From NCBI GenBank assembly GCA_016283075.1, contig JAEEMF010000018.1:2445-66444 (forward strand): 64,000 nucleotides of DNA, written 5' to 3'. The notes beneath the pieces are model-generated. The model was not told where the DNA came from. It did not search any database and worked only from the letters and a program-made list of their open reading frames with translations. This document shows, piece by piece, positions 19,008-40,073 of the stretch; position 1 is the stretch's first letter; the number at the start of each line of letters is the position of its first letter. The DNA is from Bacilli bacterium (GTDB lineage: Bacteria; Bacillota_I; Bacilli_A; RF39; UBA660). A program made the position numbers and the translations under genes.

Positions 19008-19150
19008 AAATCTAGCGCCAGGCCTATTTGGTGACGAGGTTAGTAATTATCGAAATATTCGGCGGGTATTACTACGGGGAGAAGTTCTCGATAGATATAT
19101 TTACAAAAAACAAAATCAAAATTGTAACAAAAGAATATATCACACTTTGC
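19008..19150 (+). promoter_or_regulatory. glmS ribozyme / GlcN6P riboswitch (3' boundary approximate)
   Basis: Cleavage-site and core motifs AGCGCCAGG...GACGAGG...UUAUCGAAAUAUUCGGCGGG match the conserved glmS ribozyme core. Sits directly upstream of glmS. Confidence 0.85.
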
Positions 19151-19174
19151 ATATTTAAGGAGGATTTTTTAATA

Positions 19175-23287: not shown

Positions 23288-23318
23288 AATTTCCTCCCTT
23301 TTTAAGGCTATATAAATA

Positions 23319-23348
23319 ATAGTTGCGACTACTACGAGCCGCAACTAT
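23319..23348 (-). terminator. hairpin between the 23351 and 21956 genes (weak terminator or attenuator)
   Basis: ATAGTTGCG...CGCAACTAT, a 9-bp stem with a 12-nt loop, right after the stop at 23351. The T-run is poor. Confidence 0.35.
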
Positions 23349-23350
23349 AA

Positions 23351-25048
23351 CTATTTACAACTCTTAGTTCCAGTTAAACTGTAACCTTTGTTTAGTAATG
23401 AAGTATCATTATCTGAACTACTCCATCTAATATCAACAGTACCTGAAATGTATTGTTTTTCTTTGTATCTATAGTATGTTACATTTTCAACAACATTTTC
23501 TTTCTTATAGATAGCAACTGTCTTAACACATTTTTCTCCATTTAGAGTGTAACCTTTTTTGTTACATGCGTAAGATACAGATTCTTTCTTATCTATTTCT
23601 TTATTGTAAGTTCCATAACATCTATCCTTAGTATCATTTAATTTATATCCTTGTGGACAGCTTGGATCTTTCTTTATTGTTTCTTTAATAGTTCTTGAAC
23701 AATAACTATCAGTTGCAATATCATATCCTTGTGGACAGTGAGCTGGTTTAATATCAGTAGAGGCTACTGTTTTAACACATTCACTACCAACTTGAGTATA
23801 AGATGAATCAGGGCAAGTCTTAGAAGCATATTCTTTTGTTTCTTGACATCCTGTAGTTGTAACAACAGCTTTGTAAATATTATATGTTACTAAAACCTGA
23901 TCTTTACACTCTGGTAAACAACTTGCATCTGTTCTTGTACTAATAGTTTCATAAATATATGTACTATTATTTGCAGGTTTATATGTTTTATCATATTCAG
24001 TTCCTACATAAGCACCTTTAGTTGTAGTAGTTTTGCAACCAGTTGTTTGTTTTTTAGAACAACGGTCACCATCTTCATCATATCCTTGTGGACATACAAG
24101 TGCTTTTTTATCAGTTTCAGATGATTGTTTATAACATTTGTTACCACTTGGTGTATAACCAGCATCATCACAAACATAATATGCATGAGTTATAGTAGTT
24201 TTTGTACCATAACATACACCATTTGTTGGGCCATCATATCCTGATGGACATTTTGAATTATAATATGCAGTTACAGGTTTAACACATTTTCCTGTAGACT
24301 TATCTTCGTTATAACCTTTTGGACAGTACTTAGTTACTGTTTTAGCAGCAGCTTCTTCTTCTGTCTTATAACCACTAATAACATCTTTAGTACCAGTGAC
24401 TACTTTTTCTGTTTTAGTTTCAACTTTACGATATTCTGATGCAGTAGCTTTAGTAGTTGACCAGCTTGACCAGTTACCAAAGTCACCCCATGATCCATTA
24501 GTTACTTTCTTATATTCATATTGACAAGTAACAACCTTTTTAGGTTCATTACAAGTAACTACTGGAGTTTCTTTCTTTTCACATACTCCTGTTGCTTTAC
24601 AATAATCGTAGCATCCTAAGTGAACGATTATATAAGCATCATTATCAGTACATGATAAGTTAACCTTCATTTGATATTCATTTTCAAGTTTTACAACTTC
24701 TACATAAGAGTCTTTTAAATCACAACTTTTACCATTACCATCTTTAAATTCAACAAGTAATTTATTATCAATCATTTCCTTTAAAGTCATAGATTTAACA
24801 TCTTTAACTTTTTCTGGTAATCTTTCAGTAGTGTAATAACTTACAGCAGCATCTTTCATTGTTTGTAAGTTAGTATTAAATATACCACTTGTTAAAGCAT
24901 CTAATTTACTGTTAATATCAGCAAATTCTTTATTTATACTACCCTTTGTAGGAAATAAACAAACTAGTATAAATACGAATAAAACTATGAATAATATTTG
25001 GATAAAAATATCTCTTAATGAGAAACCATCATTTTTTTCACTATACAT
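23351..25048 (-). CDS. Cys-repeat surface protein with degenerate prepilin-like N-terminus
   Basis: The RBS GAGGGGGA favours the ATG at 25048, giving MYSEKNDG|FSLRDIFIQILFIVLFVFILV. There are 8 copies of C-x3-[GS]Y-x5-7-C (e.g. CPKGYNEDKSTGKC, CPQGYDEDGDRC). Also a WGDFGNWSSWS motif and a C-terminal YYRYKEK. Confidence 0.6.
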   Translation of the reverse strand: MYSEKNDGFSLRDIFIQILFIVLFVFILVCLFPTKGSINKEFADINSKLDALTSGIFNTNLQTMKDAAVSYYTTERLPEKVKDVKSMTLKEMIDNKLLVEFKDGNGKSCDLKDSYVEVVKLENEYQMKVNLSCTDNDAYIIVHLGCYDYCKATGVCEKKETPVVTCNEPKKVVTCQYEYKKVTNGSWGDFGNWSSWSTTKATASEYRKVETKTEKVVTGTKDVISGYKTEEEAAAKTVTKYCPKGYNEDKSTGKCVKPVTAYYNSKCPSGYDGPTNGVCYGTKTTITHAYYVCDDAGYTPSGNKCYKQSSETDKKALVCPQGYDEDGDRCSKKQTTGCKTTTTKGAYVGTEYDKTYKPANNSTYIYETISTRTDASCLPECKDQVLVTYNIYKAVVTTTGCQETKEYASKTCPDSSYTQVGSECVKTVASTDIKPAHCPQGYDIATDSYCSRTIKETIKKDPSCPQGYKLNDTKDRCYGTYNKEIDKKESVSYACNKKGYTLNGEKCVKTVAIYKKENVVENVTYYRYKEKQYISGTVDIRWSSSDNDTSLLNKGYSLTGTKSCK

Positions 25049-25177
25049 ACACATATCCCCCTCAATTTCAGGTTATTATAACACTTTTTGGCATTTTGTC
25101 AAACTGATTAGGGCACACCAAAAATCTATTTTCATTAACAATAAAATTATATCATTATATATATATAAATGTCAAAG

Positions 25178-25809: not shown

Positions 25810-26307
25810 TTATTCCCCCAAACTAATATTAAAGTATTTAACATGATCCATTTCATTAACTTGTTTACCACCATTTTTAAGTATTACTTTTTCAGATATT
25901 TTGTTATCTGAAAAACAACCTAATCTTACAGATGATAAACCAAGTTTTTTTGCTTCTTCCAAAGCAAGTCTAAGTATTTCATTACCAAGACCTTCTCCTC
26001 TTCTAGAAGGTCTTATTTTATATCCTATATTACCAGATGTATTATACCAGTAATAATTTAGTACAGGTCTTATCATTACTTCTCCTACTGGTTTATCATC
26101 TGAGTACATTATATATGTTATACGAGGAGTATTTATATCATCTAAAGGAAGATATTCTTCTTTTAATCTTTCTTTTAAAAGTTTATTAAACTCTTTTTTA
26201 GATGCTCTTAAATTATTAACTGATCCATTTTCTCTTTCAGGTATTTCTTGATACATTAAGTATTCTTCTTCCGAAATTTTATCAGTTAACTTCTTTAAAT
26301 AATTCAT
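25810..26307 (-). CDS. GNAT family N-acetyltransferase
   Basis: Acetyl-CoA binding motif IRPSRRGEGLGNEILRLALEEAKKLG. Confidence 0.8.
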   Translation of the reverse strand: MNYLKKLTDKISEEEYLMYQEIPERENGSVNNLRASKKEFNKLLKERLKEEYLPLDDINTPRITYIMYSDDKPVGEVMIRPVLNYYWYNTSGNIGYKIRPSRRGEGLGNEILRLALEEAKKLGLSSVRLGCFSDNKISEKVILKNGGKQVNEMDHVKYFNISLGE

Positions 26308-26340: not shown

Positions 26341-26366
26341 AAAAATAAAAAGAAGGTTTACCTTCT
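26341..26366 (-). terminator. rho-independent terminator after A1
   Basis: AGAAGGT-TT-ACCTTCT plus a T-run on the minus strand. Near-copy of the terminator at 32587. Confidence 0.7.
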
Positions 26367-26368
26367 CT

Positions 26369-29365
26369 TTACTTTAATACTCTATATTTATTCTTTTTAA
26401 ATAAAGATATATGCTTCTTACATTCTTTTAAAGCATCAACATCTTTTTCATAAACAGTAATATTACTTATAGTCTTACTTTCTTCATCATATGCTATAAA
26501 CCAGTTTTCTCCTACTAAATATGAAGCAGTATCATCAAAAGAAGTAGGTACTTCTTCTTCAGTATCTAAGTACTGCATAGTAGCTATTCTTCTAATATCT
26601 TCTTTAGCTTCATTATATGAAGAAGTATAAGGTTCTCTTCTTTCTCTTTTATATAGTTTATTAGGTATACCAGCATAAACATCCCATATAGAAGCATCAC
26701 CTATCAAATATGTGTAACCTAAACGATCACTCATCTTTCTAAATAAATCGAAACCGTCAAAACTACTACCAGATATTTTTAATCTTACTATTTCAATAGG
26801 AGTTTTATCATCTTTACATAAATGAGTTTTTAATACTATTTCTTCTCCAATATGTCTTAAAAGATTAAATATATCTTCTAATTCAGCTACTTCACTTGAA
26901 TCAGAACTATTATAAATAAAATTACCAAATGAAATACCATTACCTTTTCTAGTTACAGATACTGTTCCAATATAGTTATCAAAAGAATCACATACTCTTA
27001 TAACTGAAGACTCATAACTTTCTAAATTAGTTCGAGTCAATAATGTAGATGGACTCAAATCACGATTAATAGCATCTTTTATAAAGTCTCCATTTGAAAA
27101 AGTATAATTTTCATACTTATAATTTTCAAAGGAACCTTTTACAAAAGGGATAATAGATTTATTTTTAATAGTTAAATACTCAAAGTCAACTGAATCAGAA
27201 CTACCAAATGAATTATACTGTTGATTAACAACTTTATGAAAATATTCATCTCCTAATAAATCGTAGCCTTCTTCATCAATGTATTGTAAGCGATTTGCAA
27301 TACCAAATAATTCATAAACATTATTTGTTTTAATATAATCTTTTTTCATATAATTATTTATTAATCTACTTATATAGAATTTTTCATACATATTGCAATC
27401 ACATTCTTTGTTTTTGCCTCTAAAATAATTATCATTGTCGTTAGCAAGAATAAAATGAAATGCACTTGTTCTTTTTAAATATTCTTCGTATTTATCAGCG
27501 TTATCAAGAAATCCCTTTAAATCACTTGTAGGAACTTCTAATAATTCTTTTATAAATGAGAATATACAAGTTGTAGTTTGAACCTCAAAATGTTCATCAT
27601 CAAAAGGAATATCCTTAGGAATATGTTCAAAAGGGCCCATAAAGTAATTATCATAATCTCCTTCAAAAGTTTTATAATATGCTTCTTCTAGTACTTCCTT
27701 ATATATTTTATACATTCTTTCTTTTTCTTCCCAGGTTACTTTATCAGGCAAATCTAAATTAAACCATCTATCGTAATATACTCCATCTCTTTCTCTTATA
27801 TAGTTAAGATAATAAGAAATAGTTTTATTATTTATATCTATTTTTCCACAATTTAACCATCTTATTATTTTGTATAATGTTTTCTCTTTTTGATACATTA
27901 TATGGTCTTCTTCAATAGGAATTTGCTCATTATAATCATCTTTACCATACAAAAAACCTTCAAAACAATCTAAATTTTCTCTTAAATATTGTTCTTCAAC
28001 TTTATCCATCTTATATTTTTCAGATACATCTTTTATTATATTTTCTAAATAACCATTACTATAAGAAAAAATCTTTTTCAAACTATTTCTTCTATCATTT
28101 AAATCATAATACTTACCTTTATCCTTTTTTGGAATTAAGATAGGCCCAAATATTTCATAATATCTAGTTTTAATATAATTTTCTTTTTCTCTTTCCAAAA
28201 ATAGTTTTTCGCTTTTAAAAATAATATTAGCATCATCAGCTGAGTAAGTTTCATTTTTGTTATACTCATAAGCAAATTTTTGCATAGCAGTAAGTAACTC
28301 TTTATATTCTTCATGAGTTAACTGTTTTTTTAATATATTTAAATATTCTTCTATATAAAGGAAACTGGTAAAATAACCACAATCTTTTAAATAACTAATT
28401 ATCTTGTTAGCTATATTATTAGGATATGGTTCATATACTAAATTATCATACCACTCTTCTTCGAGTGCTTTTCCAAAAAAGTTTTTTATTTTACTTACTG
28501 TTAAAGGTGTACTAAAACCTGCTCTAATTATCTTACATAATGAAGGAATGTTTTCTTGTAAAACATTAATTCCTTCTTTTTGTCTTTCTATACACGCAAA
28601 ATTATGTAAATATTTATCTAAAACTCTTTTTACAAATGATTCAAGATTATTAGATGTGGTTAAAACATCTAAATTAAAATGAAAAATATCTTCTTCAAAA
28701 GTATAACCTTTATCTTCTAAATATTTAAATAAATCTTTATTTTTTTTAGCATAGTATGCTAAATTATCATCTTTTCTCCATCTCCATCCCCTTTTATTAC
28801 TTTCAATCATATAACGAGAATCAATAATTTGACATGCATCGCAGTTATCTAAAGATAGTAAGTAGTTAATAAACTTTTCTTTTTCTTCTTCACTAAAATA
28901 TCTTTCATCTGCCCATCCAGCTGAAGAAGGATCCAGCTTAGCGGAATTCAATGCCACTTTAAAATTTCTTTTTAAATACTGTGGACTGTTTCCTACAAGA
29001 ATATAATTATTTTTTATAGCAAGTTCTACTAAATCATCTATAATGTTTCTATTATTTTTAGTTATAGATGTTCCATTAATTGATTTAATATTATTTTTAG
29101 CGGCATTTAATATGCATTCTTTACTATTTTTTAGAAGAGATGGTGTATCATCATTAAAAATGAGATCATAATTACAAAAATAATTTACTAAATAATCTAT
29201 TTGTTCTCTAGACAATTTCCACTCTGGGAATGTTTCTTTAGAAGATATTTCTTCTGCTACTTTTCTAATATCTTTAGATGGAAATAATGAATTTCTAGAT
29301 ATAGGAATATTTTCATGCTGAATTATATAATTAAATAATTTAATCTTTTCTTCTAATGTATACAT
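26369..29365 (-). CDS. large cytoplasmic protein of unknown function, type A (A1, 998 aa)
   Basis: ATG with an AAGGAG RBS embedded in the 3' end of B1 (26-nt overlap). Full-length paralog of 32612..35569, sharing DDEHFEV, LEREKE.YI, YKI.KEVLEE and VG[DE]NWFI.YDE. No signal peptide, TM or P-loop seen. Confidence 0.85.
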   Translation of the reverse strand: MYTLEEKIKLFNYIIQHENIPISRNSLFPSKDIRKVAEEISSKETFPEWKLSREQIDYLVNYFCNYDLIFNDDTPSLLKNSKECILNAAKNNIKSINGTSITKNNRNIIDDLVELAIKNNYILVGNSPQYLKRNFKVALNSAKLDPSSAGWADERYFSEEEKEKFINYLLSLDNCDACQIIDSRYMIESNKRGWRWRKDDNLAYYAKKNKDLFKYLEDKGYTFEEDIFHFNLDVLTTSNNLESFVKRVLDKYLHNFACIERQKEGINVLQENIPSLCKIIRAGFSTPLTVSKIKNFFGKALEEEWYDNLVYEPYPNNIANKIISYLKDCGYFTSFLYIEEYLNILKKQLTHEEYKELLTAMQKFAYEYNKNETYSADDANIIFKSEKLFLEREKENYIKTRYYEIFGPILIPKKDKGKYYDLNDRRNSLKKIFSYSNGYLENIIKDVSEKYKMDKVEEQYLRENLDCFEGFLYGKDDYNEQIPIEEDHIMYQKEKTLYKIIRWLNCGKIDINNKTISYYLNYIRERDGVYYDRWFNLDLPDKVTWEEKERMYKIYKEVLEEAYYKTFEGDYDNYFMGPFEHIPKDIPFDDEHFEVQTTTCIFSFIKELLEVPTSDLKGFLDNADKYEEYLKRTSAFHFILANDNDNYFRGKNKECDCNMYEKFYISRLINNYMKKDYIKTNNVYELFGIANRLQYIDEEGYDLLGDEYFHKVVNQQYNSFGSSDSVDFEYLTIKNKSIIPFVKGSFENYKYENYTFSNGDFIKDAINRDLSPSTLLTRTNLESYESSVIRVCDSFDNYIGTVSVTRKGNGISFGNFIYNSSDSSEVAELEDIFNLLRHIGEEIVLKTHLCKDDKTPIEIVRLKISGSSFDGFDLFRKMSDRLGYTYLIGDASIWDVYAGIPNKLYKRERREPYTSSYNEAKEDIRRIATMQYLDTEEEVPTSFDDTASYLVGENWFIAYDEESKTISNITVYEKDVDALKECKKHISLFKKNKYRVLK

Positions 29366-32300
29366 TCACATTATCTCCTTCTATTTCATTTCCATCTACT
29401 TTAATTATTTTATCATTTAGTATACTTGATTCCACACTACATATCTCATTATTTGCATCTTCGTCAAAAGGAAGACTTAATGCTCGGCACTTATTATCTC
29501 CTACGATTATATACCAGTTATCTCCTACAAAAACAAAATCACTTTTATCAGGTATATATTCTTCATATAATTCTTCATTATTTTTAGAACTTATTGCATT
29601 TATTTTATTAATTTTTGCTACTACTCTCTTAGAAGGGTTTGATTCAAAAATAATTTTATTTCTAGTTCTTTTATAATATGCTTCTGCATCATACTTTTTT
29701 ATATAATTCTTTTTGTCATATTCACCATATTCATTAAGTTCATACTTTGATGCAAGGCAAATAATAGGAAAAGATCCGCAATAATCAGTAGTAAGTTTTC
29801 CATCATCTAAATTCTCTGTATACTCAAGAAATTCTTCAAAATCTTCTGTATCTTCTACAAATGAAAGTTCTCCTATTTCTCTTCTTAGATTAATACCAAC
29901 ATTAGATTTATATGTATTAAATCCGTAACTTTTTGTTATAAATACATTTTCTATTTGATTATCTTCTGGTTCAGTACTACTAGATATATTTATAAAATCT
30001 TCAGATGCTTTAATTACTACTTTTCTTAATTCAGTAAGTTGTGAATCAGTATAATCACTTGAATTCATTGCAACATCATAAATAGTTCTAAGCTGATTTA
30101 AATAAATACTATTACCATGTCTTAAACCTGATGCTCTTGCAATAAATTTTCCTTCATTATCAGTTATTTTAATTACAAAACCATTTGGATTAATTGCGCA
30201 GTAATGTAAGAAATCATTGTCATTTCCACTAACTTTAAAACAAGCATCTGTATCAATGCCTGATACTAATATAGAAGGATCTTGACTATCATATAAAGAG
30301 TAATTATATCCATTAGTACTTCCCTTAATATAAGGTACAGTGGATTTATTTTTTTCAGCCATTTGAGCAACTAATTCCGCTGCTATTTCAACTCTTTCTG
30401 GTGTATCTTCACTAGTATATTCAGTACTATATATAACCTTCTGTATAACATCTAAATCTTCAAGTATTGCAAGTTCTTCTTTAGAACAGTTATTAACAAT
30501 ATCAATTGATGTTAAATAATTAAAATAATTAAGTTCATTAATACCCATTTCTCTTAAAAGATCATATGCTTTTCCAAAAGAAAGTATTTGATCGTACGAA
30601 AAGTAATATCTATTATTATTAGAAAAGAATAGGAAAATCCAAAATAATCCTTTATCACACATAAGTTTAGTAAATGCATTATATTTTTCATCATCTAAAA
30701 TATCATTTACAGCAAAAGGTAGTTTTAGCTTAATTTTATAATCTGGATCAGTATATGAACTATTAAGTAAATGAACAAGTATATTATCTGGCACATAATT
30801 GTAATTAAATCTATAAAAATCATCATTAAAGCAGAAGTTTGATTCATCTATTTCAGCTAATTGAAAATTAAATATTTCGTTATCTTCATTTACTTCTTTA
30901 GCTTTCATAATTATTTCTCTTACTATTCTTTTAGCTAAATATAGTTTCTTTTCATATTCTATACATTCATCAATATCTGTAACTTTTGCAGTATTATTTT
31001 TATATGTGGTTTTTCCATTTATTGTACATTTTTCAATATAATTTTTAAATCTTTCTACATCTTTATCCGTATATTTTATATAACCACTATTAAGTCTATT
31101 AACAAGTTTATTTACCTCTTTAGAAATACAATATGTATCATATTCTTCTGGTTTACCAGGAGTATCAAATTCATCTTTTTCACATACAGATTCGAAAAGT
31201 GCATCTACTAACTCACTATCACCATATTTATCTTTTAAGTAATTTACAAATTCATCAAAAGAACCATTTAAATAAAATCTTTTAATAGTTTTAATATATC
31301 TTTTACTCATAATATAAGATTTTACTGCTTTATTATCTTTTCTAAGTATGTAATAGTTAAGTAAGTAGTTTCTTATATGATCATATCCACTTTCTAACTC
31401 GTTTTCTATACATTGTGAGTAATATAAAGAACATATACTAGATATTAAAGATAAATATTTATTTTGTTTTTCAGGTTCTCCTTCATTATGGTATAACTCA
31501 TGATATCTTCCCATAGCATCATGTAATACTTCTACTTTATCTTTAGGTAATTCTTCTTTCATTCCATTTAATACTTCATATAAATCATTTAGTGATACAT
31601 TATAAGAAGTATTTGCTCTCAAACTAGAACCTATTAAAGAAAATGGGTTTGCTGTCTCTCCAGTTTTCTTCATTTCCATATATCCAACTACTCTACCATA
31701 ATCATGCATGTTTTCGATAGTTAAAGGAGTAGATACCGCTTTAGAAATAAGAGCAGAAACTCTATCATTATATTTTGCTTTATCAATACGTTTTCTACCT
31801 TTATATGAAAATAATTTTTTATTAATTTCTTTATCTTCTAAATGATTAACAGATAATTCTTGTGTAATATCTTTACCTTTTTCAATCATATCAATAATAT
31901 ATTTATTAGGAAGTAATGAGTTATTACAGTAAAGAATAGTTTCTGAAGGATTGTTTTTATAAGATACTTCAGTAATATCCTTACTATCCCTTAAGAAATC
32001 AGGGGTATCTTCATTTATATAATATTTATTAGAAGAACATATTTTCTCTATAATAATATTTTTTTCATTATCAGATAGACTATTGTAGTCTAGATAGTCT
32101 ACTGAAAAAATATCTTTTTCTATGGATCTTAAAGCTAGTTTAAATAAACCTTTTAAATAAAAAGGAGTTTTTTCAGTTATATAATAATTAGGTTTCAAAG
32201 AATTAAATATAGCATCTTCATATCCTACTTCAAAAGCTTTAGGAAGTTCTTGTACAGAATTTGGATCTTTTCTAATTGATGATAAAGTGCATTCAATACT

Positions 32301-32519
32301 ATTTCTAAATATTTCTAAATCATAGTTCTTAAAAGAATAATTATGCGCACAAAAAACCCTAATAAGTTCTTTTTCTTCTTCAGAACTTAAACTTTCATTC
32401 CTAGTAAGTTTAATAAGAGTTTTTCTATTTATAGCGCCTTTATTCATTAAATTATTATTTAGAATAAACTCTATTAACTTATAATTTTCTCTCATATTAG
32501 GATATATTACATCCGCCAT
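29340..32519 (-). CDS. large cytoplasmic protein of unknown function, type B (B1, 1059 aa)
   Basis: Full-length paralog of 35550..38720. Shared strings are KLVNRLNSGYIKYTDKDVE, DDEKYNAFT, VSGIDT.ACFKV, NQLRTI, VFITKSYGFNT and FVGDNWY. Confidence 0.85.
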   Translation of the reverse strand: MADVIYPNMRENYKLIEFILNNNLMNKGAINRKTLIKLTRNESLSSEEEKELIRVFCAHNYSFKNYDLEIFRNSIECTLSSIRKDPNSVQELPKAFEVGYEDAIFNSLKPNYYITEKTPFYLKGLFKLALRSIEKDIFSVDYLDYNSLSDNEKNIIIEKICSSNKYYINEDTPDFLRDSKDITEVSYKNNPSETILYCNNSLLPNKYIIDMIEKGKDITQELSVNHLEDKEINKKLFSYKGRKRIDKAKYNDRVSALISKAVSTPLTIENMHDYGRVVGYMEMKKTGETANPFSLIGSSLRANTSYNVSLNDLYEVLNGMKEELPKDKVEVLHDAMGRYHELYHNEGEPEKQNKYLSLISSICSLYYSQCIENELESGYDHIRNYLLNYYILRKDNKAVKSYIMSKRYIKTIKRFYLNGSFDEFVNYLKDKYGDSELVDALFESVCEKDEFDTPGKPEEYDTYCISKEVNKLVNRLNSGYIKYTDKDVERFKNYIEKCTINGKTTYKNNTAKVTDIDECIEYEKKLYLAKRIVREIIMKAKEVNEDNEIFNFQLAEIDESNFCFNDDFYRFNYNYVPDNILVHLLNSSYTDPDYKIKLKLPFAVNDILDDEKYNAFTKLMCDKGLFWIFLFFSNNNRYYFSYDQILSFGKAYDLLREMGINELNYFNYLTSIDIVNNCSKEELAILEDLDVIQKVIYSTEYTSEDTPERVEIAAELVAQMAEKNKSTVPYIKGSTNGYNYSLYDSQDPSILVSGIDTDACFKVSGNDNDFLHYCAINPNGFVIKITDNEGKFIARASGLRHGNSIYLNQLRTIYDVAMNSSDYTDSQLTELRKVVIKASEDFINISSSTEPEDNQIENVFITKSYGFNTYKSNVGINLRREIGELSFVEDTEDFEEFLEYTENLDDGKLTTDYCGSFPIICLASKYELNEYGEYDKKNYIKKYDAEAYYKRTRNKIIFESNPSKRVVAKINKINAISSKNNEELYEEYIPDKSDFVFVGDNWYIIVGDNKCRALSLPFDEDANNEICSVESSILNDKIIKVDGNEIEGDNVNVYIRRKD

Positions 32520-32586
32520 ATTCTCACCTTAGCCCGTAGTATCTCAAGTAGTTTATTATTGTAATACAAAGTATCTTTTATATCAA

Positions 32587-32609
32587 GAAAAAAAGAAGGA
32601 TTTCCTTCT
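32587..32609 (-). terminator. rho-independent terminator after A2
   Basis: AGAAGGA-TT-TCCTTCT plus T7 on the minus strand. Confidence 0.7.
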
Positions 32610-32611
32610 TT

Positions 32612-35569
32612 TTAACTTAATACTTTATATTTTTTATTTTTTAATGAATTAATAGCATCTTTACATTCATTAAGCGCTTCTTTATCTAGTTCGTATACCC
32701 TACTATCAAGTATTGTTTTAGTAGTTTCATCATAAATAATAAACCAGTTATCTCCTACTATATAAGATGAGTTTTCATCATGATTTATAGTATGACTTAC
32801 TTTATCATCATGACATAATTGTGATAAAGAAATTATTTTATATATTTTATCTTTTACTTCATCAAAATTATTTGTTTCTACTTCTTCATCTCTTGGTCTA
32901 GTATATATGCTTGGCATATAAAAAGGATCATACTCATAGTTATAATTATATAGTTTATATGTTCTAGGAGTATTAGGATAACGATCAGTTATTACTTCAT
33001 CTATATCAATATCTACAAAATGAATTGGCTTCTTATCATTAAATTTTCTCTTAGTAATTTTTTGAAGTGCTTCAGCAATTTCAAGTGTAAGATTTCTAAC
33101 ACTTACAATCTTATCAAAATTATCATATATAGTTTCTGGTACTTCTATATGAAGTGTATTACCCATTCTTTTTAAAGAAATAATTCCAATAAAGTTATCT
33201 AATGAATCAGTAATTCTTACATAAGACTCACTTGGTGTAGTTGTAGCATCTTTCTTTAAAACAATACAGTCTTTAACATATTGTCCATCTGATAAGTTAT
33301 ATGTTTTATATTTAAGTCCATTATATTCTCCATCTAAATAAGGAATATTGGATTCATTATTAGGAATAAAACTTCCAACTGGGAAATACCCTGAATCTAT
33401 AGAGTAATACTCTTCATTCATTTTTTCAATTACTTTACGAATATGTTCTTCTCCAAGAAGTGCAAAGGCATCCTCATCTATTACTTTTCCGTAGAATACA
33501 CCTGTTACAAAGTTGTAAAAATCCATATTAGAGTAATCTATTTTACCTATATTTCTATCTATAGAACTAAATAGTACAAATGGATCAATTCTTCTATTAA
33601 TTGATAATTCGAATATGTCTTCATTAGAAAACATGTTATTATTTGGATAATCATTAAAAATGAATCTTGCTACTCCTGTTTTACTTAAAAATTCATCTAT
33701 ATCTTTATGATTATGTAACATATTTTCACTTATCTTAGAGTATGGTGAAAATATATAATCAACTATATCATTGAATGTTATAGGGCAGTATACTTCAAAA
33801 TGTTCATCATCAAGTGGTGAATTATTATCCATTAATATACCACCATTATCATCAGGAAAACTTTTTGATAACGAATCAAAATATAGTTCTTCTAATACTT
33901 CTTTTGCTATTTTATATAATTTTTTATTATCTTCAAATTCTTCTTTATACTCATATTCGGTATAATCATTTGATTCACGAGCGTAGAATACCCCATCTTC
34001 ACTTTGATAGATATAATCTGATAAATATCCTAAATTATATTCATCTATAGAAATAGTATTATCATTTAATTTATTTACAAGGGAGTCTATTTTCTTACCT
34101 AAAAGAGCCTTTTTATAAGTTGCAAATGCTTCACTATCAGGTAAATCTTTTTCAAAATCATATCCTAAATAGTCATGATAATAATCATTTATGTAATGAT
34201 AAATAGCACTTTCTTCATCATTAGATAAATTATATTTCTTAGAGTATTTAGTAATAGTTTCACAGTAGTTTCCAGAATCTGATATTATAGTGCATAATCT
34301 ATCTTTATTTCTCTTTTGTTTTAGATAGATACCTCTATTTTTCTTAGGTCTTATTACATTACTAAATAGTTTTTTATATAAGTAATCTATATATTTTTCT
34401 TTTTCTCTTTCTAAATAAATAGAAATATATTTATTTAGAACTATACTTGCTTCACTAGGAATATATCCATCTTTTTTTAATCTATGTATTTCATATATAG
34501 ATTTAAAGAACTCTCTATACTCATCTGGTTTTAAATTAGCTTTAAATCTTTTTCTTATTTCATCAGTAGCATTCATGGTTTTATCAAATGTATTATCTGG
34601 ATAAATACTACTTATAATATTTGAAAATAAGTCTATATACCAATCTTTATATATAAATTTATAACGTTCCCACTCCTCTTCAATTGTTCTTCTATAAAAA
34701 TCTTTTATAGATTTAATAGAAGGATTACTTCCAAAAGAAGATTTAATTATAGATGCAAATTCACTTATATTTTCCCTATATAAATCTACTCTCTCAGAAT
34801 TATAAGAACTTAGCATTCTAAGAAGTATTTCATCAAAATCATCTCTTTTTGATAGTACATCTAAAGGTACTCCTTTTAAATCAAATGTTCTTAAAACACC
34901 ATTTTCATACATATAGTTATATAACATAGGACATTCATTTACATAATAAAATAATTGATCATTTGTAATCCATCCTTTTTTTTTTGCATATGTTATAAAG
35001 TTATAATCTACTATATTAAAACCAATTTCTAATTCATCTAAATCTAAACTTATTAAATAATCTACAATACTCTTTTTCTCTTCATCACTAAAGTATTCAA
35101 AATTAATATTTGTAGATGAATTAGGATCTAATTTAATAGAGTTAAATGCTATAGCATAACTATTTTTAAAAATAACAGGACTATCAAAAGATAATACATA
35201 GTTATTATCTATAGCTAACTTTTCTAAATCTTTAATACTCATCATTATATTTTTATTAACTTTTATTTTTCCTAAAGCAGTAGCATATTTAGACCAGGCT
35301 AAATGAGCTATACACTTAGGATTAGATAAAAATAAATATGGAGTATCATTAGTTACTTCTACATTATTCTTGCAAAAATCTTCTACTAATATATCTATTT
35401 CTTCTTTAGATAATTCCCAGTTATTTAATCTTTCTTTATCTTTAGAAGATATTATTTTCGCTACTTTAGCAAGTTTTAATGGATTAAAAGTATCACCACT
35501 AGAAAGAGGGATATTTTTATTATTCATTATGTAATTAAATAAATTAATTTTATCGCTTAATGAAGGCAT
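32612..35569 (-). CDS. large cytoplasmic protein of unknown function, type A (A2, 985 aa)
   Basis: ATG with an AAGGAGGG RBS inside the 3' end of B2 (20-nt overlap). Paralog of A1. Confidence 0.85.
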   Translation of the reverse strand: MPSLSDKINLFNYIMNNKNIPLSSGDTFNPLKLAKVAKIISSKDKERLNNWELSKEEIDILVEDFCKNNVEVTNDTPYLFLSNPKCIAHLAWSKYATALGKIKVNKNIMMSIKDLEKLAIDNNYVLSFDSPVIFKNSYAIAFNSIKLDPNSSTNINFEYFSDEEKKSIVDYLISLDLDELEIGFNIVDYNFITYAKKKGWITNDQLFYYVNECPMLYNYMYENGVLRTFDLKGVPLDVLSKRDDFDEILLRMLSSYNSERVDLYRENISEFASIIKSSFGSNPSIKSIKDFYRRTIEEEWERYKFIYKDWYIDLFSNIISSIYPDNTFDKTMNATDEIRKRFKANLKPDEYREFFKSIYEIHRLKKDGYIPSEASIVLNKYISIYLEREKEKYIDYLYKKLFSNVIRPKKNRGIYLKQKRNKDRLCTIISDSGNYCETITKYSKKYNLSNDEESAIYHYINDYYHDYLGYDFEKDLPDSEAFATYKKALLGKKIDSLVNKLNDNTISIDEYNLGYLSDYIYQSEDGVFYARESNDYTEYEYKEEFEDNKKLYKIAKEVLEELYFDSLSKSFPDDNGGILMDNNSPLDDEHFEVYCPITFNDIVDYIFSPYSKISENMLHNHKDIDEFLSKTGVARFIFNDYPNNNMFSNEDIFELSINRRIDPFVLFSSIDRNIGKIDYSNMDFYNFVTGVFYGKVIDEDAFALLGEEHIRKVIEKMNEEYYSIDSGYFPVGSFIPNNESNIPYLDGEYNGLKYKTYNLSDGQYVKDCIVLKKDATTTPSESYVRITDSLDNFIGIISLKRMGNTLHIEVPETIYDNFDKIVSVRNLTLEIAEALQKITKRKFNDKKPIHFVDIDIDEVITDRYPNTPRTYKLYNYNYEYDPFYMPSIYTRPRDEEVETNNFDEVKDKIYKIISLSQLCHDDKVSHTINHDENSSYIVGDNWFIIYDETTKTILDSRVYELDKEALNECKDAINSLKNKKYKVLS

Positions 35570-38500
35570 TCATTTTCCCTCCTTTAATGGTTTCTATTTC
35601 ACTTTCACTTACATAATCATGAAGCGTTGAAAGTGCAGCTTTTAATTCTTTTTGAGCATCTTTATCAAATTTTAAAGCATAAGCATCTATAAATGAATCA
35701 TTTACTACTAAATACCAGTTGTCTCCGACAAAAGCTTTAGAATTCTTATCATATTTAATGTTTTCAAAATCATCATCATTTCCAAAATAAGCTTTTACTG
35801 CTCTTATTTTATTTATCTTTCTATTTGTTTCAGAAGAAATACTATCTTCACATATAACTTTATTTCTAGGTCTTTTATAGAATGGTTTTGGATCATATTT
35901 AACTATCTTAGTATTAGCTTTAGTATATTTCTTTTTTTCTTCTAAAGAAGCTAAACATATTAACTGATAATTATAATAATCGGTAGGAAGACTGTTACTA
36001 CCAGGAAGATCAGTTAATTCTTGTGTTTCATGCCTAAATTCTTCCCAGTCTTCTCCTTCTCTTACATAAGGATTATCAGAAATGATATTTTTTATTGTTT
36101 CCGCTACATTAGATTCACATGTATTAAATCCATAACTTTTAGTAATAAATACATATTCTATTCTATGATCTTCTGGCTCAACTTTAGAAGAAATGTTAAT
36201 TATATCATTACTTGCTTTAATTAAAGCCTTTCTCATTTCTTCTATTTCGCAGTTGTTATATACAGAGCTATTTAAATCTATATCATTTATTGTTCTAAGC
36301 TGATTAAAGTACACTGCATTACCATTTCTAAATCCCGAAGCTCTTCCTACAAAGTTACCTTGTTTATCAGTAAGTTTAATAATAAATCCATTTTTATTAA
36401 TACCGCAGTAGAACATAAGGTCATTATCTACTCCGCCTACTTTAAAACATGCATTAGTATCTATTCCAGATACTAATATATCAGGAGACTGACTATCATA
36501 TGTTTCATAGTTATAAGCCTCTGTAGAACCTTTTACATATGGTACTGTTGACTCACTTCTTCTAGCCATTTGAGCCATTAACGCCCCAGCACCATTTACT
36601 CTTCTTTCTATAGTAACACCATTAGCATAAACAGTAGAATAAATAATCTTACGCATAATATCAGGTTTATCTACTAAAGCAAATGATGCACTTTTAGAAC
36701 AATTAGCTAAATCTACAACATTTAAAAAATCAAATACTGTAATATCATCTACATCTATTAGTTTTAAATAATCATATACTTCACTAAAAGAAGATAATCT
36801 TACATAAGGTTCTTTAAAGTAATAATCACTATCAAATCCATCAAGCCATATATATCCAGTTTCACATAAAAAGTTAGTAAATGCATTATATTTTTCATCA
36901 TCTAAAATGGTTCCAATTTGAAATGGAAAACGTGCTGAAAAATTATCTACTGATCTATGATTTGCTATTAAATTATAATAAGCTTTTCTATTATTACCAA
37001 ATGTATTAAATTCATAAAACTCATCAGTAAAACTAAGTGTACCATCTGGAATACTCATTAACTGATAATCAAATATTTCATCATCTTCATTATATTCTTT
37101 AGCTTTTAAAATTAAATCTTGTTTAATTTTACTAGTAATATATAATTCTTTTTCATATCTTTTAAATTCTTTTAATTCTTCATTTGTAAATGTTTCACCT
37201 ATATAAATATATTTACCAGATGATTTATCATACTTAATTACTCCTAAGTATTTTTCTACATCTTTATCAGTATACTTAATATATCCACTATTAAGCCTAT
37301 TTACTAATTTAGAAGCTTCTTTAGATATTGTATAAGAATTCCAAAGTAGAGGCGGATTATTAGTATACTTACTATAAAATGAAAAAGTTCTTACTACTTC
37401 ATAAGCGAATTTTTTATCTACATTATATTTTTCTGCTAAACTATCTATATATTTTAGTAGTTCTTCATCTTTATTATCTAATTTCTTTTTAATAGTATTA
37501 CCATATCTTTTACCCATTATAAAAGATTTAACTTTCTTATTATCTTTTCTAGGTATAAATAGACTTCTAGTTTTATCTATATAAGTATTTATGGTTTCAG
37601 TTATTCTTTTTTCTTTTTGTTTAGAAAAATAAAGTGCACAAAAACTAGATATATTAGTTAAATAATCACTTAAGTTATCAGTAATACCATTATGATAATC
37701 ATTAAAGTACTTTTCAGCATTATTTAAGAAATTAATATATTCTTCTCTTCCCATTATATCTTCCATACTAGTAAGAGTTACGCGAAGTAGCCCTTTTGCG
37801 GCTACAAAATCATCACTTTCTCTTAAAGTAGAACATATAGTAGTAAATGGATTAATAAAAGTACTATCTTTACTTATTTTAATAATTCCTATAGCTCTTG
37901 CATAATCTTTAATATTTTGAATAGTAAGAGGTTTAGAAAATACTTTTGCAACTAATTCTTTTGATCTAGCATAGTATTTATCATAATCATCACCTTTATA
38001 AAAGAAGAATGCTTCTCTCATAATAGAATCAATAACATCTTTATCTTTAAAATGGACATGCGATATATATTTAGTTTTACCTTCATTATCAATAATATCC
38101 GCTATTATACTAGGAGGTATTATCTTTCTATCTACATAATCTATAGTATTTTCATCTATCTTATAAGAACACTCAAATACTTTAGTATTACACTTTAAAT
38201 ATTCTGGAGACTTTTCTGAAAGTACAAAATTATTCTTACAAAGAATATCTACTATAGTATTTCTTTCTTCTTTAGATAGTCCGTCATAATCGATATAGTT
38301 AGCGCTATTTATATCTTTATTTAAAGATATATTTATTATTTCAATATTATGTTTTAAAAATAATGGAGACTCTTTAGATAAAACATAATTATCTTTAATT
38401 AGTTCTATTACTTCTTTAATAATAGATATATCTAATTCACTTGGTAAACAGTTTACTGAGTTAAGGTTAACTTTTATAGATGAAATAATACATTCTCTAT

Positions 38501-38720
38501 TAACACTAAATAAAGGATGATTATATTCTAGTAAAGAACATTTAGACATACAAAAAACATTTCTAAGTTCTTTTTGCTCTTCAAAATTTAGAAATTCATC
38601 ATTAATTATTTTTGTAATAGTATCTCTATTTATACATTTATTTTCATCAAGAGAAAAGTTTCTAAGTATAAATTCTACTAATACATATTTTTTCTCATCT
38701 AGATATAAAAAATCATCCAT
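35550..38720 (-). CDS. large cytoplasmic protein of unknown function, type B (B2, about 1056 aa)
   Basis: Paralog of B1. The track start at 38732 is TTG; the ATG at 38720 (MDDFLYLDEKK) lies downstream of GGGGGA. Confidence 0.85.
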   Translation of the reverse strand: MDDFLYLDEKKYVLVEFILRNFSLDENKCINRDTITKIINDEFLNFEEQKELRNVFCMSKCSLLEYNHPLFSVNRECIISSIKVNLNSVNCLPSELDISIIKEVIELIKDNYVLSKESPLFLKHNIEIINISLNKDINSANYIDYDGLSKEERNTIVDILCKNNFVLSEKSPEYLKCNTKVFECSYKIDENTIDYVDRKIIPPSIIADIIDNEGKTKYISHVHFKDKDVIDSIMREAFFFYKGDDYDKYYARSKELVAKVFSKPLTIQNIKDYARAIGIIKISKDSTFINPFTTICSTLRESDDFVAAKGLLRVTLTSMEDIMGREEYINFLNNAEKYFNDYHNGITDNLSDYLTNISSFCALYFSKQKEKRITETINTYIDKTRSLFIPRKDNKKVKSFIMGKRYGNTIKKKLDNKDEELLKYIDSLAEKYNVDKKFAYEVVRTFSFYSKYTNNPPLLWNSYTISKEASKLVNRLNSGYIKYTDKDVEKYLGVIKYDKSSGKYIYIGETFTNEELKEFKRYEKELYITSKIKQDLILKAKEYNEDDEIFDYQLMSIPDGTLSFTDEFYEFNTFGNNRKAYYNLIANHRSVDNFSARFPFQIGTILDDEKYNAFTNFLCETGYIWLDGFDSDYYFKEPYVRLSSFSEVYDYLKLIDVDDITVFDFLNVVDLANCSKSASFALVDKPDIMRKIIYSTVYANGVTIERRVNGAGALMAQMARRSESTVPYVKGSTEAYNYETYDSQSPDILVSGIDTNACFKVGGVDNDLMFYCGINKNGFIIKLTDKQGNFVGRASGFRNGNAVYFNQLRTINDIDLNSSVYNNCEIEEMRKALIKASNDIINISSKVEPEDHRIEYVFITKSYGFNTCESNVAETIKNIISDNPYVREGEDWEEFRHETQELTDLPGSNSLPTDYYNYQLICLASLEEKKKYTKANTKIVKYDPKPFYKRPRNKVICEDSISSETNRKINKIRAVKAYFGNDDDFENIKYDKNSKAFVGDNWYLVVNDSFIDAYALKFDKDAQKELKAALSTLHDYVSESEIETIKGGKMNAFIKR

Positions 38721-38788
38721 AAAGTCCCCCAATTTATAAAAGATTTAATATGCGGTTTATTATAATACATTATTAATATTAAGGCAAA

Positions 38789-38815
38789 TTAAAAAAGATA
38801 GAAATATTCTATCTT
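38789..38815 (-). terminator. rho-independent terminator after the kinase-like gene
   Basis: AAGATAGAA-ATA-TTCTATCTT plus a T-run on the minus strand, overlapping the TAG stop. Confidence 0.65.
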
Positions 38816-39627
38816 TTAACTCCATATTCTTTTAAGAAGCCCTTTCTTTTATAATTAATATAATCATAGAAATCAAGAGCTCTAGTATAATCTTCACCAA
38901 TTGTATTTTTATTAAATGAATAATCATCAAATATATTAGTAATTATTTCTCCAAAATCGTTATCTAATGTATCAAATACTATTTCTTTAAATTCAGGATT
39001 TTCCTTTATAAAAGGTATTACTTCATCTACATCTTTTAAAGGATTATTTATTTTATCAAAACCATATGGGAAGCAAGATTCATAATCATAAACAGGTGCT
39101 AAACTTATTTTACCAGTACTCTTTTCTCTTGCTATTTGAACATTTACACCTGCTCTATCTTCCTGGCCCATAGCAAAATCTAGGGCTAATAATTTATAGT
39201 ATTCAGTCATAAATTCTTTTTTATTACTATCACTTATGCACATTTTAAGTACTTCATCTAGCATAAACATTGTGTATTTAATATCTTTACCAAGTTTTAA
39301 AAACTGATATCTTTTATCACTTCTAAAGTCTTTTGAGGCAATACCTAGTATTCCACCTCTTACTGCTACTTTATATTCTACTGTAGGAAGCTTAATTCTT
39401 TTAGCTAAATAGGAACCAAATAGTTCATGATATAAAGAATGATACTGTTTTAAACTAGATTCTTCTTTAAAGAAGTAGTAATCACCATTATGTTTTTCAA
39501 TCATTTCAACATATTTCTTACTAGTATTTGTATATGGATAAGCATATACTTTTTCTTTTTCAGAAAATGGTATTTCATCAAAAGTAATTACTTCTGTTTT
39601 ATCAGTAATTATTGATTCTAGAATCAT
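38809..39627 (-). CDS. HipA / PI3-4-kinase-like putative kinase (paralog of 5491..6312)
   Basis: GQEDRAGVNVQIA and LAPVYDY motifs. The ATG at 39627 has a perfect GAGGAGG RBS; the track start at 39642 is GTG. Lies 11 nt after the YolD-like stop. Confidence 0.5.
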   Translation of the reverse strand: MILESIITDKTEVITFDEIPFSEKEKVYAYPYTNTSKKYVEMIEKHNGDYYFFKEESSLKQYHSLYHELFGSYLAKRIKLPTVEYKVAVRGGILGIASKDFRSDKRYQFLKLGKDIKYTMFMLDEVLKMCISDSNKKEFMTEYYKLLALDFAMGQEDRAGVNVQIAREKSTGKISLAPVYDYESCFPYGFDKINNPLKDVDEVIPFIKENPEFKEIVFDTLDNDFGEIITNIFDDYSFNKNTIGEDYTRALDFYDYINYKRKGFLKEYGVKR

Positions 39628-39638
39628 AATAAACCTCC

Positions 39639-40073
39639 TCACATAAATATAATGATGTTTATTATGTCATTTATTTTAATTTTTTTCAAGTTACTTAGTA
39701 TAACTAATTTAGAAATATCATCTATCTTTTTAACAGAATCTTTTACTGTTAGGTATGCTCCTCCCTCTTTATATCTATCTTTTTCAAAGTAAGTAATACT
39801 TACTAGTGGAAACTCTTTTAAATGCTCTTTAATATAAAGAAGTTTTTCATTTATAACACTTTTTTCATCTTCAGATAAATTTAGTTTTTCACTAGTAAGT
39901 CTAGATGTTTCTTCTACTAGTTCTTCATATCCGGTAAGTGCTGCAAAAGGAGCAAACTGAGCAGCTCTTTTATAAGTACTCATTCTAGGATGATTTTTTG
40001 GATCAAAGTGTTTTATATCAATAATATCACTATACTTACGCCTTGTGGCCGCCAATTTCTCTGTTTCGTTCAA
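39639..40073 (-). CDS. YolD-like protein
   Basis: KRAAQFAPFAALTGYEE motif typical of YolD-like partners of Y-family polymerases. TTG start with a GAAGGAGG RBS inside the polymerase 3' end. Confidence 0.65.
   Translation of the reverse strand: MNETEKLAATRRKYSDIIDIKHFDPKNHPRMSTYKRAAQFAPFAALTGYEELVEETSRLTSEKLNLSEDEKSVINEKLLYIKEHLKEFPLVSITYFEKDRYKEGGAYLTVKDSVKKIDDISKLVILSNLKKIKINDIINIIIFM

Follow-up and report, generated by a model that had tools for sequence, protein, structure and literature searches.

Enzymes of the GNAT superfamily, among them Gcn5, NatD/Naa40, RimI, AAC(3) and SpeG, are built on a core in which beta1, alpha1, alpha2, beta2-beta3-beta4, a long alpha3, beta5, alpha4 and beta6 follow one another, with beta4 and beta5 splayed apart. 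The alpha1-alpha2 loop, the beta3-beta4 region and strand beta4 form the acceptor and donor sites of these enzymes, and motif A, a Q/R-x-x-G-x-G/A sequence in the beta4-alpha3 loop, binds the pyrophosphate of coenzyme A (CoA). A GNAT-like fold devoid of the acetyl-CoA motif is present in aminoacyl-tRNA-dependent enzymes such as L/F-transferase, FemX/FemAB, MprF/L-PGS and ATE1. The GNAT toxins of toxin-antitoxin systems (TacT, AtaT, ItaT, KacT) are proteins of about 150-180 amino acids (aa) that are paired with a small ribbon-helix-helix or helix-turn-helix antitoxin. The subject of the present work is an array of four genes, forming two B-A pairs and encoding proteins of about 1000 aa, in a stretch of 64,000 nucleotides (nt) from a Bacilli bacterium of the RF39 lineage (GenBank assembly GCA_016283075.1, contig JAEEMF010000018.1, positions 2,445 to 66,444 of the forward strand), hereafter called the window. 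An earlier note, made from the sequence alone, had described this array as a duplicated two-gene module without recognisable family.

The core of the B proteins is predicted to follow the GNAT order of elements, and its conserved residues lie on the alpha1-alpha2 loop and beta4, in the GNAT acceptor/donor region. Unlike the GNAT superfamily, however, B shows no sequence-profile similarity and no conserved pyrophosphate loop, carries a Cys/Asp-Asn-Asp/Arg/Asn-Gln-x-Arg signature of its own, and holds the domain within a 1000-residue protein that ends in an extra beta-meander sub-domain. The aminoacyl-tRNA-dependent enzymes share with B a GNAT-like fold without the acetyl-CoA motif, and an aminopeptidase-like gene found beside B relatives would suit N-terminal chemistry. 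Nevertheless, they match less well than classical GNATs and without sequence similarity, no tRNA-binding feature was identified in B, and they are taken here as a lead only. The likeness to GNAT toxins consists of a structural match to AtaT (rank 25, target-normalised template modelling score, or TM-score, of 0.50) and of overlapping genes whose products are presumed to interact, whereas the two genes of a pair both give products of about 1000 aa, the partner being a degenerate paralogue in which no DNA-binding domain was detected, and the pairing is lineage-specific. In DUF4116 proteins (PF13475), repeats of about 53 residues correspond to those of B relatives and, weakly, of A1, but this domain covers only about 150 of the 1000 residues and says nothing on function, DUF4116 itself being uncharacterised to our knowledge. 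Finally, the array recalls enzyme/pseudoenzyme pairs and contingency loci, since an active-looking B stands beside a presumably co-expressed, residue-depleted A, a unique homopolymer varies in length and an allelic cassette lies between conserved flanks; the difference is that complex formation and switching are presumed for the present family.

From the evidence presented below, it appears about evenly probable that B is a divergent transferase which, together with a pseudoenzyme partner A, is encoded in a strain-variable and possibly conflict-related cassette.

The four-gene array

The minus-strand gene order is B2-A2-terminator-B1-A1-terminator, and the open reading frame (ORF) coordinates bear out the order that had been proposed before.

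26369-29365, minus strand: A1, 998 aa, degenerate B paralogue and putative pseudoenzyme
29340-32519, minus strand: B1, 1059 aa, family member with the full set of motifs
32612-35569, minus strand: A2, 985 aa, degenerate B paralogue and putative pseudoenzyme
35550-38732, minus strand: B2, 1060 aa when counted from the TTG at 38732, family member with the full set of motifs

For B2, the ATG at 38720, which lies in a GGGGGA-N5-ATG context, is the more likely start and would give a product of 1056 aa; this 1056-aa product is identical to the NCBI protein P0003.

At the protein level, A1 and A2 are 31% identical (E 1e-113) and B1 and B2 40%. A and B are related to each other by BLASTP at 4e-9, and both A1 (2e-32) and A2 (4e-34) match a full-length B profile over nearly their whole length. 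These profile matches, at about 1e-32 to 1e-34, indicate that A and B are true homologues of the same architecture, in agreement with the distant homology suspected from the sequence. In a neighbour-joining tree of 28 family members, (B1,B2) and (A1,A2) each form sister pairs together with orthologues of the type found in L001, another contig carrying the array. Such sister pairs are the prediction of a duplication of the B-A unit, and they fit the tandem duplication that had been put forward. In the same way, the islands of identity reported between the copies were found again, KLVNRLNSGYIKYTDKDVE in B1 and B2 and DDEHFEV in A1 and A2.

Predicted GNAT-like fold of the B core

B can be divided into three putative parts: helical repeats of the DUF4116 type come first, a long helical middle follows, and a compact module of about 330 residues, with a predicted GNAT-like core, makes up the C-terminus. 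The corresponding features are as follows.

31920-32357, minus strand: N-terminal helical repeats of B1 (about 53 aa, [ST]PxFLK..., DUF4116-like), residues about 55-200
29745-30347, minus strand: predicted GNAT-like core of B1, residues about 725-925, from the model, Foldseek and the conservation across 135 sequences
29343-29744, minus strand: C-terminal sub-domain of B1, common to A, with Tyr949-x-Arg-x-Arg953, a helix, the VGDNWY beta meander and a terminal helix
35943-36557, minus strand: predicted GNAT-like core of B2, about residues 726-930, by alignment to the B1 core, with the lowest ratio of non-synonymous to synonymous divergence (dN/dS) in B2 (0.15)

Each of the four window proteins shows repeats of the [ST]PxFLK type, spaced about 53 aa apart. 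In the relative P0066 the DUF4116 score exceeds the Pfam gathering threshold (33.8 bits vs 24.9), and PF13475 is precomputed for the relatives P0177, P0194 and P0018; in the window, A1 gives a weak match (11.1 bits, E 0.3) and B1, B2 and A2 give none. A low-confidence AlphaFold model of full-length B1, with a predicted local distance difference test score (pLDDT) of 69, is all-helical from residue 1 to about 720 and then passes into an alpha/beta module. The latter was modelled separately from B1 residues 705-1059 and a 51-sequence alignment (model me21344fe12f1), with a pLDDT of 88.7 and a predicted TM-score (pTM) of 0.87. The modelled elements run in the order beta, beta, alpha1, alpha2, beta2-beta3-beta4, long alpha3, beta5, helices and beta6, and beyond beta6 come a helix, a three-stranded meander containing VGDNWY and a terminal helix. 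The IP[FY].[KD]G motif, which had been regarded as a central core shared by A and B, is really the first strand region of the predicted GNAT-like domain; likewise, the C-terminal module attributed to both proteins is common to them, with a much better conservation in B than in A.

When the B1 705-1059 model was compared with the PDB by Foldseek, the best 50 matches all belonged to the GNAT superfamily. Gcn5 in SAGA came first (3.7e-4), followed by NatD, RimI, AAC(3), AtaT, SpeG and VipF. Within these best 50, E-values range from 3.7e-4 to 3e-2, probabilities are mostly 0.84-1.00 with one N-myristoyltransferase at 0.35, and target-normalised TM-scores reach 0.53. With the full-length B1 model, 49 of the 50 listed structural matches fall in the GNAT or GNAT-fold group, and L/F-transferase, FemAB and L-PGS appear among the weaker structural matches. 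Uncharacterised phage proteins and GNATs headed the matches to predicted viral structures, with a 'PcfJ-like' protein at rank 16; the literature on DUF4116 and PcfJ provided nothing useful. The conserved B core is thus one for which a GNAT acyltransferase fold is predicted, and the lack of any structural match to a characterised family, on which the unknown nature of the proteins had been made to depend, does not hold for the modelled core.

Invariant residues in B and their loss in A

Across the 135 sequences, 49 core positions are conserved at a level of at least 85%. In B1 numbering, the conserved residues include Pro729, Tyr743, Gly754, Thr757, Cys760 (97%), Asp767-Asn-Asp769, Tyr773, Asn779-Gly780, Lys784, Arg795, Arg800-x-Gly-Asn803, Asn808-Gln-x-Arg811, Asp815, Tyr949-x-Arg-x-Arg953, Gly999 and Trp1002. 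About 30 polar or charged residues show 85-99% conservation in the same set. In the model, the invariant residues are located on the alpha1-alpha2 loop, the beta3-beta4 hairpin and strand beta4, and their position along the secondary structure suggests that they cluster in space. As B thereby has invariant residues of its own where GNATs bind their substrates and catalyse, we infer that it is an active transferase.

All four B proteins of the window and of L001 keep every invariant residue. On the contrary, the four A proteins of the same two contigs are all devoid of Asp-Asn-Asp, Arg795 and Asn-Gln-x-Arg, and the A1-type proteins of Cys760 as well. They keep Pro729, Tyr743, Asp787, Arg800-x-Gly-Asn, Tyr-x-Arg-x-Arg and Gly-(Asp/Glu)-Asn-Trp. 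B1 and B2 combine a full-length profile match with the residues by which the family is defined here, namely Cys760, Asp767-Asn-Asp, Arg795, Arg800-x-Gly-Asn, Asn808-Gln-x-Arg, Tyr949-x-Arg-x-Arg and Gly-Asp-Asn-Trp; A1 and A2 have the profile match and only part of these residues. As a paralogue of B that has lost most of the invariant residues, A is probably a degenerate B copy acting as a pseudoenzyme partner. It is still under purifying selection, with a dN/dS against the L001 orthologues of 0.48 for A2 and 0.52 for A1.

Size and hosts of the family

An exhaustive HMMER search with a six-sequence B profile retrieved relatives in 510 representative clusters (50% identity) at E<=1e-3, of which 164 at E<=1e-30. 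Most of the 150 listed matches are 950-1130 aa long and span nearly the whole B profile, the remainder being shorter fragments or longer forms. No member of the family is named in any source, and all are from metagenomes or metagenome-assembled genomes (MAGs). A word-indexed protein search recovered only 5 B and 3 A relatives, which means that the family is badly under-reported by this route; P0008, an A relative according to that search, proved to be B-type and was rejected as such. An alignment-based scan of GTDB species representatives (one genome per species) located 99 loci, where an earlier single-protein scan of genome contigs had found no relatives. The hosts are nearly all MAGs of uncultured Bacilli, Tenericutes, Erysipelotrichaceae, Candidatus Onthocola and Clostridium sp. 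CAG:594, from rabbit, goat, mouse, chicken and human guts, and several genomes carry 3 or 4 family loci.

Library searches were largely silent. None of Pfam, NCBIfam, PADLOC and PHROGs had a significant match to the four proteins, no consistent Pfam family emerged from 51 members of the family, and a PDB sequence search with the full-length profile gave no match. With a core-containing profile, the PDB search produced weak and probably chance matches, the best being 6ks5 (Legionella 'Type IV secretion protein Dot', E 0.038), aligned as three collinear but unevenly spaced segments. The claim that the proteins belong to no recognisable family is consequently correct in that the family has no name and its core no Pfam model, and needs revision at the level of the fold, assigned to GNAT, and of the DUF4116 repeats.

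The longer proteins (1100-1900 aa) of a more distant subfamily, L059-L091, have nothing but the core in common with the other members (E about 1e-20 to 1e-38). Most of the 19 loci of this subfamily have, directly downstream, an unannotated gene for about 109 aa (17 of 22 positions recorded; for instance L067 4928-5257).

Genomic context in relatives

Gene neighbourhoods were surveyed at loci from 80 species-representative genomes and from metagenome contigs. In most surveyed loci B is a solo gene. Independent B-B tandems, in which both copies keep the motifs, occur in five loci (L011, L025, L027, L062, L067). A-type genes are limited to the lineage of the window, where they were found in the window itself and in L001, L002 and L092. 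L001, a 50.9-kb ENA contig, has the same four-gene array between the same flanks, and L002 and L092 are partial copies. A conserved B-A pairing in other genomes, on which the earlier note had made its reading depend, was hence not encountered outside this lineage. In a more distant MAG (L026), a single B lies behind the same IMS gene (60% identity) and YolD-like gene that precede the array, and this syntenic single B suggests that one B was probably the ancestral state at the locus.

Another gene recurs beside B outside the window. A metallohydrolase gene of M20/M28 type, about 270-340 aa long, is located directly upstream of B in 15 loci; the loci recorded for it are L006 (9174-10004), L015 (6766-7800), L007, L008, L011, L013, L014, L016, L018-L020, L022, L027, L046, L050 and L052. 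Its ligand motifs are intact (HMDTV, GGDDRCG, EDEEIG, YNEH). In L006, the locus at which the coordinates were read, the end of the metallohydrolase gene overlaps the start of B by 4 nt, and in P0071 the metallohydrolase is fused to the N-terminus of B. This recurring partner suggests a paired chemistry, in which one protein modifies and the other removes, or one trims and the other modifies. An M28-like hidden Markov model (HMM) run against all window ORFs found no such gene in the 64 kb. The 277-aa gene upstream of the array was tried as an M28-like partner and rejected (BLASTP E 0.87, no HMM match). A classical GNAT gene follows the array in the window and a solo B in L003 (41% identity), a link seen only in those close relatives.

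Most family contexts consist of housekeeping genes (gyrB, sigH, spoIIGA, lepA). One member, at L007 3751-8700 and also in L008 and L014, is split into halves of 579 aa and 547 aa by the insertion of a DDE transposase gene. It adjoins Mob_Pre, serine recombinase and DnaB-like genes, neighbours that place the split member in an integrative or mobilisable element.

Strain-variable cassette

Comparison of the window with L001 (3796-16097) by sliding identity delimits a region of about 10.3 kb with only 50-85% nucleotide identity.

26670-36950, strand not applicable: strain-variable cassette, which takes in A2 and B1 completely, B2 in its C-terminal 45% and A1 in its first 90%

Outside the cassette, identity to L001 rises to 95-100%. 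These flanks comprise, on the B2 side, xseA, IMS, the YolD-like gene, the 277-aa gene and the first ~1.7 kb of B2, and on the A1 side, the last ~300 nt of A1, the GNAT gene and the 209-aa, 567-aa and 462-aa genes. By the Nei-Gojobori method, flank genes differ from L001 with a synonymous divergence (dS) of 0.06-0.21 and a non-synonymous divergence (dN) of 0.004-0.036, against a dS of 0.65-0.83 and a dN of 0.20-0.42 for the C-terminal half of B2, A2, B1 and the first 900 codons of A1. This five- to eight-fold rise in synonymous divergence means that relaxed constraint alone is insufficient as an explanation. The sequence comparison indicates that the two contigs hold anciently diverged alleles in an otherwise conspecific background, and hence that the cassette is exchanged by recombination. 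A third contig, L092, carries the window-type allele. A diversity-generating retroelement was considered as the source of the variability and rejected, as the stretch is 10 kb long and synonymous sites are strongly diverged too.

All four genes have a dN/dS below 1, as do almost all 75-codon windows within them, which implies that all four are maintained genes. The ratio is lowest in the two B cores (0.15-0.19) and higher in A (0.35-0.9).

The poly-A tract and disabled A copies

A2 contains the sole homopolymer of at least 9 bases in the window, whose A+T content is 74%.

34976-34985, minus strand: A10 tract in A2 (T10 on the plus strand), coding Lys-Lys-Lys, sole homopolymer of at least 9 bases in the 64-kb window

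Over 6.7 kb, the only difference between L002 and the otherwise 100% identical window is an A11 in place of the A10, by which the A2 frame is broken; L002 and the protein on record belong to one and the same NCBI assembly. The A10/A11 difference may reflect either slipped-strand phase variation or a homopolymer sequencing or assembly error. In L092 (3469-6459), A1 is called as two products of 857 aa and 119 aa, and the sole indel found there is close to the stop codon, so that the split is probably due to a premature stop. A1 may be decaying or dispensable in some strains.

Gene overlaps, hairpins and the intergenic region

The signals read around the four genes are listed here.

35577-35584, minus strand: ribosome-binding site (RBS) of A2, AAGGAGGG, inside the B2 coding sequence and ahead of the A2 ATG at 35569
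29375-29380, minus strand: RBS of A1, AAGGAG, inside the B1 coding sequence and ahead of the A1 ATG at 29365
about 32590-32613, minus strand: terminator-like hairpin after A2, AGAAGGAAATCCTTCT followed by a T-run, arms AAAAAGAAGG-AAAT-CCTTCTTTTT
26351-26366, minus strand: terminator-like hairpin after A1, AGAAGGTAAACCTTCT followed by a T-run, AGAAGG-TAAA-CCTTCT
32520-32611, minus strand: A2-B1 intergenic region with the terminator, a promoter-like TTGATA-17-TACAAT (32586-32558) and a 5' leader with the RBS AAGGTGAG

In both copies the start codon and RBS of A were indeed read inside the end of B, and the overlaps, of 20 nt between B2 and A2 and of 26 nt between B1 and A1, are compatible with the translational coupling that had been deduced from them. 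The hairpin after A2 is also kept in L001, there with a 5-nt loop, and the A1 orthologue of L001 ends in an identical copy of the A1 hairpin. The pattern AGAAGGNNNNCCTTCT (AGAAGG-N4-CCTTCT) occurs 3 times in the window, vs 0.00 expected. The third exact copy, at 47067-47082, is inside or beside the ORF 46977-48152 and far from the array, and shows that the stem sequence is not unique to the duplicated unit. Both near-identical terminators of the earlier note are present, but their co-duplication with the unit is only a possibility, since the proteins have diverged to 31-40% identity and 16-nt hairpins could equally reflect selection or convergence.

The A2-B1 intergenic region is about 96% identical between the window and L001, whereas the proteins of the adjoining genes are only 58-62% identical, which suggests that it is a constrained regulatory element. 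A second promoter-like site stands near 38760-38790, and from the two sites B2-A2 and B1-A1 could be transcribed separately. The G+C content of the window is about 26%. None of the four proteins has a transmembrane (TM) segment (maximum Kyte-Doolittle 19-residue mean 1.21) or a signal-peptide-like N-terminus, and the hydropathy scan agrees with the cytoplasmic location assumed from the start.

Neighbouring genes

Two neighbours of the array could be considered as parts of the system, and the membership of each is uncertain.

38809-39642, minus strand: 277-aa gene upstream of B2, weak HipA-like kinase (Pfam HipA_C E 0.0077 and HipA_2 E 0.052, both below cut-off)
25810-26307, minus strand: classical GNAT acetyltransferase of 165 aa downstream of the array (Pfam Acetyltransf_1 1e-9)

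The 277-aa gene (dS 0.32, dN 0.12 against L001) is more diverged than the other flank genes, and in L026 an unrelated 143-aa gene occupies its position. The segment 39639-41532 holds two overlapping genes, one for a Y-family polymerase (IMS, E 7e-26) and one for a 144-aa protein weakly similar to YolD (E 0.0057). This pair resembles the uvrX/yolD-type SOS pair of Bacillus, and the same pair precedes the solo B of L026. On the other side, the 567-aa and 462-aa genes (21956-25054) had no Pfam, NCBIfam or PADLOC match, and the 567-aa product is rich in Cys-containing repeats (C-P-x-G-Y-D). Further away, a glmS ribozyme (Rfam RF00234, 67.6 bits) was found at 19003-19150, upstream of the plus-strand glmS (19028-20986).

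Proposed mechanism and rival explanations

The following scheme would account for these observations. The array may represent a lineage-specific expansion of an unannotated family of cytoplasmic proteins of about 1000 residues in uncultured low-GC gut Bacilli. B would be an active group-transfer enzyme, the group being acyl or aminoacyl and its transfer possibly proceeding via the invariant cysteine, and the helical N-terminal two thirds of B would select the target or a partner. With the CoA loop missing and an invariant cysteine present, a classical acetyl-CoA mechanism is uncertain in the model; an acyl-cysteine intermediate or an aminoacyl donor are possible alternatives. A would have arisen from B, keeping the architecture and the C-terminal sub-domain, and, translated from the B message by way of a start site within the end of B, would serve as a dead partner that binds B or regulates it. 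A duplication of this pair as a unit would have followed, recombination in the conserved sequences at the 5' side of B2 and the 3' end of A1 would exchange the cassette, and the poly-A tract of A2 may switch it. The variability of the cassette points to frequency-dependent or conflict-type selection rather than to housekeeping, and together with a patchy multi-copy distribution and a variable context this hypervariability suggests a conflict-type role.

Several observations weigh against this scheme. The Foldseek E-values are modest and the fold comes from prediction only. No GNAT Pfam family (CL0257, for example PF00583, PF13302, PF13508) was detected at E<=1 in the four proteins, nor in 51 members, and hhalign of the 135-sequence core with neighbouring classical GNATs gave a probability of 0.1. 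The Q/R-x-x-G-x-G/A loop is absent from B1 and B2 (TIYDVAMNSSDY), the beta4-alpha3 loop being TIYDVAMNSSDYTDSQ in B1 and TINDIDLNSSVYNNCE in B2; across the family this loop varies in length and sequence, with GGxG in some members and a deletion in others. The missing motif A loop makes the use of acyl-CoA doubtful. PADLOC (PADLOC-DB v2) had no match at E<=0.1 for the four proteins, and for 138 representatives of neighbour families only scattered generic matches (HTH, RecD-like, Lon/BrxL-like, one AbiZ). Phage and plasmid collections searched with the core by tblastn, and an IMG/VR scan, contained no relatives, and a mobile or viral origin is unsupported on the same grounds. Finally, the A10/A11 difference could be a homopolymer sequencing error, and the disabling changes of A in two assemblies (the L002 frameshift and the L092 stop) could mean decay and not regulation.

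The conflict aspect can be taken further, to anti-phage defence or abortive infection, a possibility already raised for this locus. B would then be a sensor-effector whose repeats sense and whose GNAT-like domain modifies a target, for example an aminoacyl-tRNA or a protein of the phage, A would act as decoy or regulator, and the variability would result from an arms race. The strain-level hypervariable cassette, the multi-copy and patchy family with its variable genomic context, the member that is split by an insertion sequence in an integrative or mobilisable element, the possibly phase-variable tract in A2, AtaT-type GNAT toxins among the structural matches and the adjoining weak HipA-like gene all go in this direction. 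Nevertheless, PADLOC recognises none of the four proteins, the 138 neighbour families carry no defence-island signal, most contexts are of the housekeeping type and dN/dS stays below 1, so that defence as such has no support from PADLOC and is held to be unlikely, even if strain hypervariability may reflect a conflict role. A comparably doubtful explanation starts from the metallohydrolase and sees in B an acyl- or aminoacyl-transferase acting on protein N-termini or side chains, which would work with an M20/M28 aminopeptidase or deacylase as writer and eraser or by trimming before modification, the hydrolase being replaced here by A. It draws on the gene with HxD, DDRCG, EDEE and NEH motifs at position -1 in 15 loci, overlapping B by 4 nt in L006 and fused to it in P0071, on the presence of the N-terminal acetyltransferases NatD and RimI among the best structural matches, and on the matches to the aminoacyl-tRNA-dependent folds L/F-transferase, FemAB and L-PGS. 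However, the hydrolase gene is absent from the 64-kb window, and with a housekeeping modifier one would not expect a patchy, multi-copy distribution or hypervariability among strains.

Both explanations assume catalysis, and a non-enzymatic alternative would see in the array scaffold or cytoskeleton-like proteins, with a GNAT-like module that binds a ligand or a protein and with A and B as interchangeable structural paralogues. Two thirds of each protein are indeed helical repeat, the classical CoA motif is missing, and A is under purifying selection without the invariant residues. Yet the ~30 polar or charged residues conserved at 85-99% in 135 sequences cluster at the part of the fold that usually forms the GNAT active site, the B cores have the lowest dN/dS, and a structural housekeeping role leaves the hypervariability at the allele level unexplained, which makes this alternative highly improbable. 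That the array encodes polymorphic toxins, secreted or delivered by contact, against which A gives immunity is hardly credible. Variable C-terminal parts joined to a conserved 5' end of the first gene do recall the swapping of toxin cassettes, and an overlap with the preceding gene, as seen here, is common among immunity genes, but the proteins have neither a signal peptide nor a TM segment, Pfam and NCBIfam detected no LXG/WXG/Rhs-type delivery domain, the invariant core is the most conserved part and not the variable one, the variable region covers whole genes and not a C-terminal tip, and A is as large as B and confined to one lineage.

A divergent transferase B with a pseudoenzyme A in a strain-variable cassette is thus the explanation retained here. 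In its most far-reaching form, the B family would be made of unrecognised giant GNAT-fold enzymes that have moved off the classical acetyl-CoA site to cysteine-dependent or aminoacyl transfer and that serve as a conflict system, in phage defence or strain competition, specific to reduced-genome gut Bacilli, with the pseudoenzyme pair, the array, cassette exchange and the poly-A switch as its elaborations in this lineage, and with an M20/M28 hydrolase partner that elsewhere reverses or prepares the modification. This extended form is regarded as rather unlikely.

Meaning for the family and its hosts

Reduced-genome gut Bacilli (MAGs of the RF39, Erysipelotrichaceae and 'Tenericutes' types) abound in the guts of animals and humans, and hardly any of them has been cultured. 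In these organisms, 3 to 12 kb per locus, often at several loci, are given to a family that is unannotated and sizeable, and whose core, as judged from the model, lies within a known fold superfamily. The GNAT-fold assignment together with the distinct residue set offers the first testable handle on about 500 sequence clusters. The variation of the cassette is the most interesting new fact, and a conflict system or a new transferase chemistry, if proven, would explain why the locus is a hotspot of strain variation. Should B prove to acetylate proteins in the ordinary way, what is left of the finding is a useful annotation; if a conflict system or new transferase chemistry holds true, the family would be a new branch of a well-studied superfamily.

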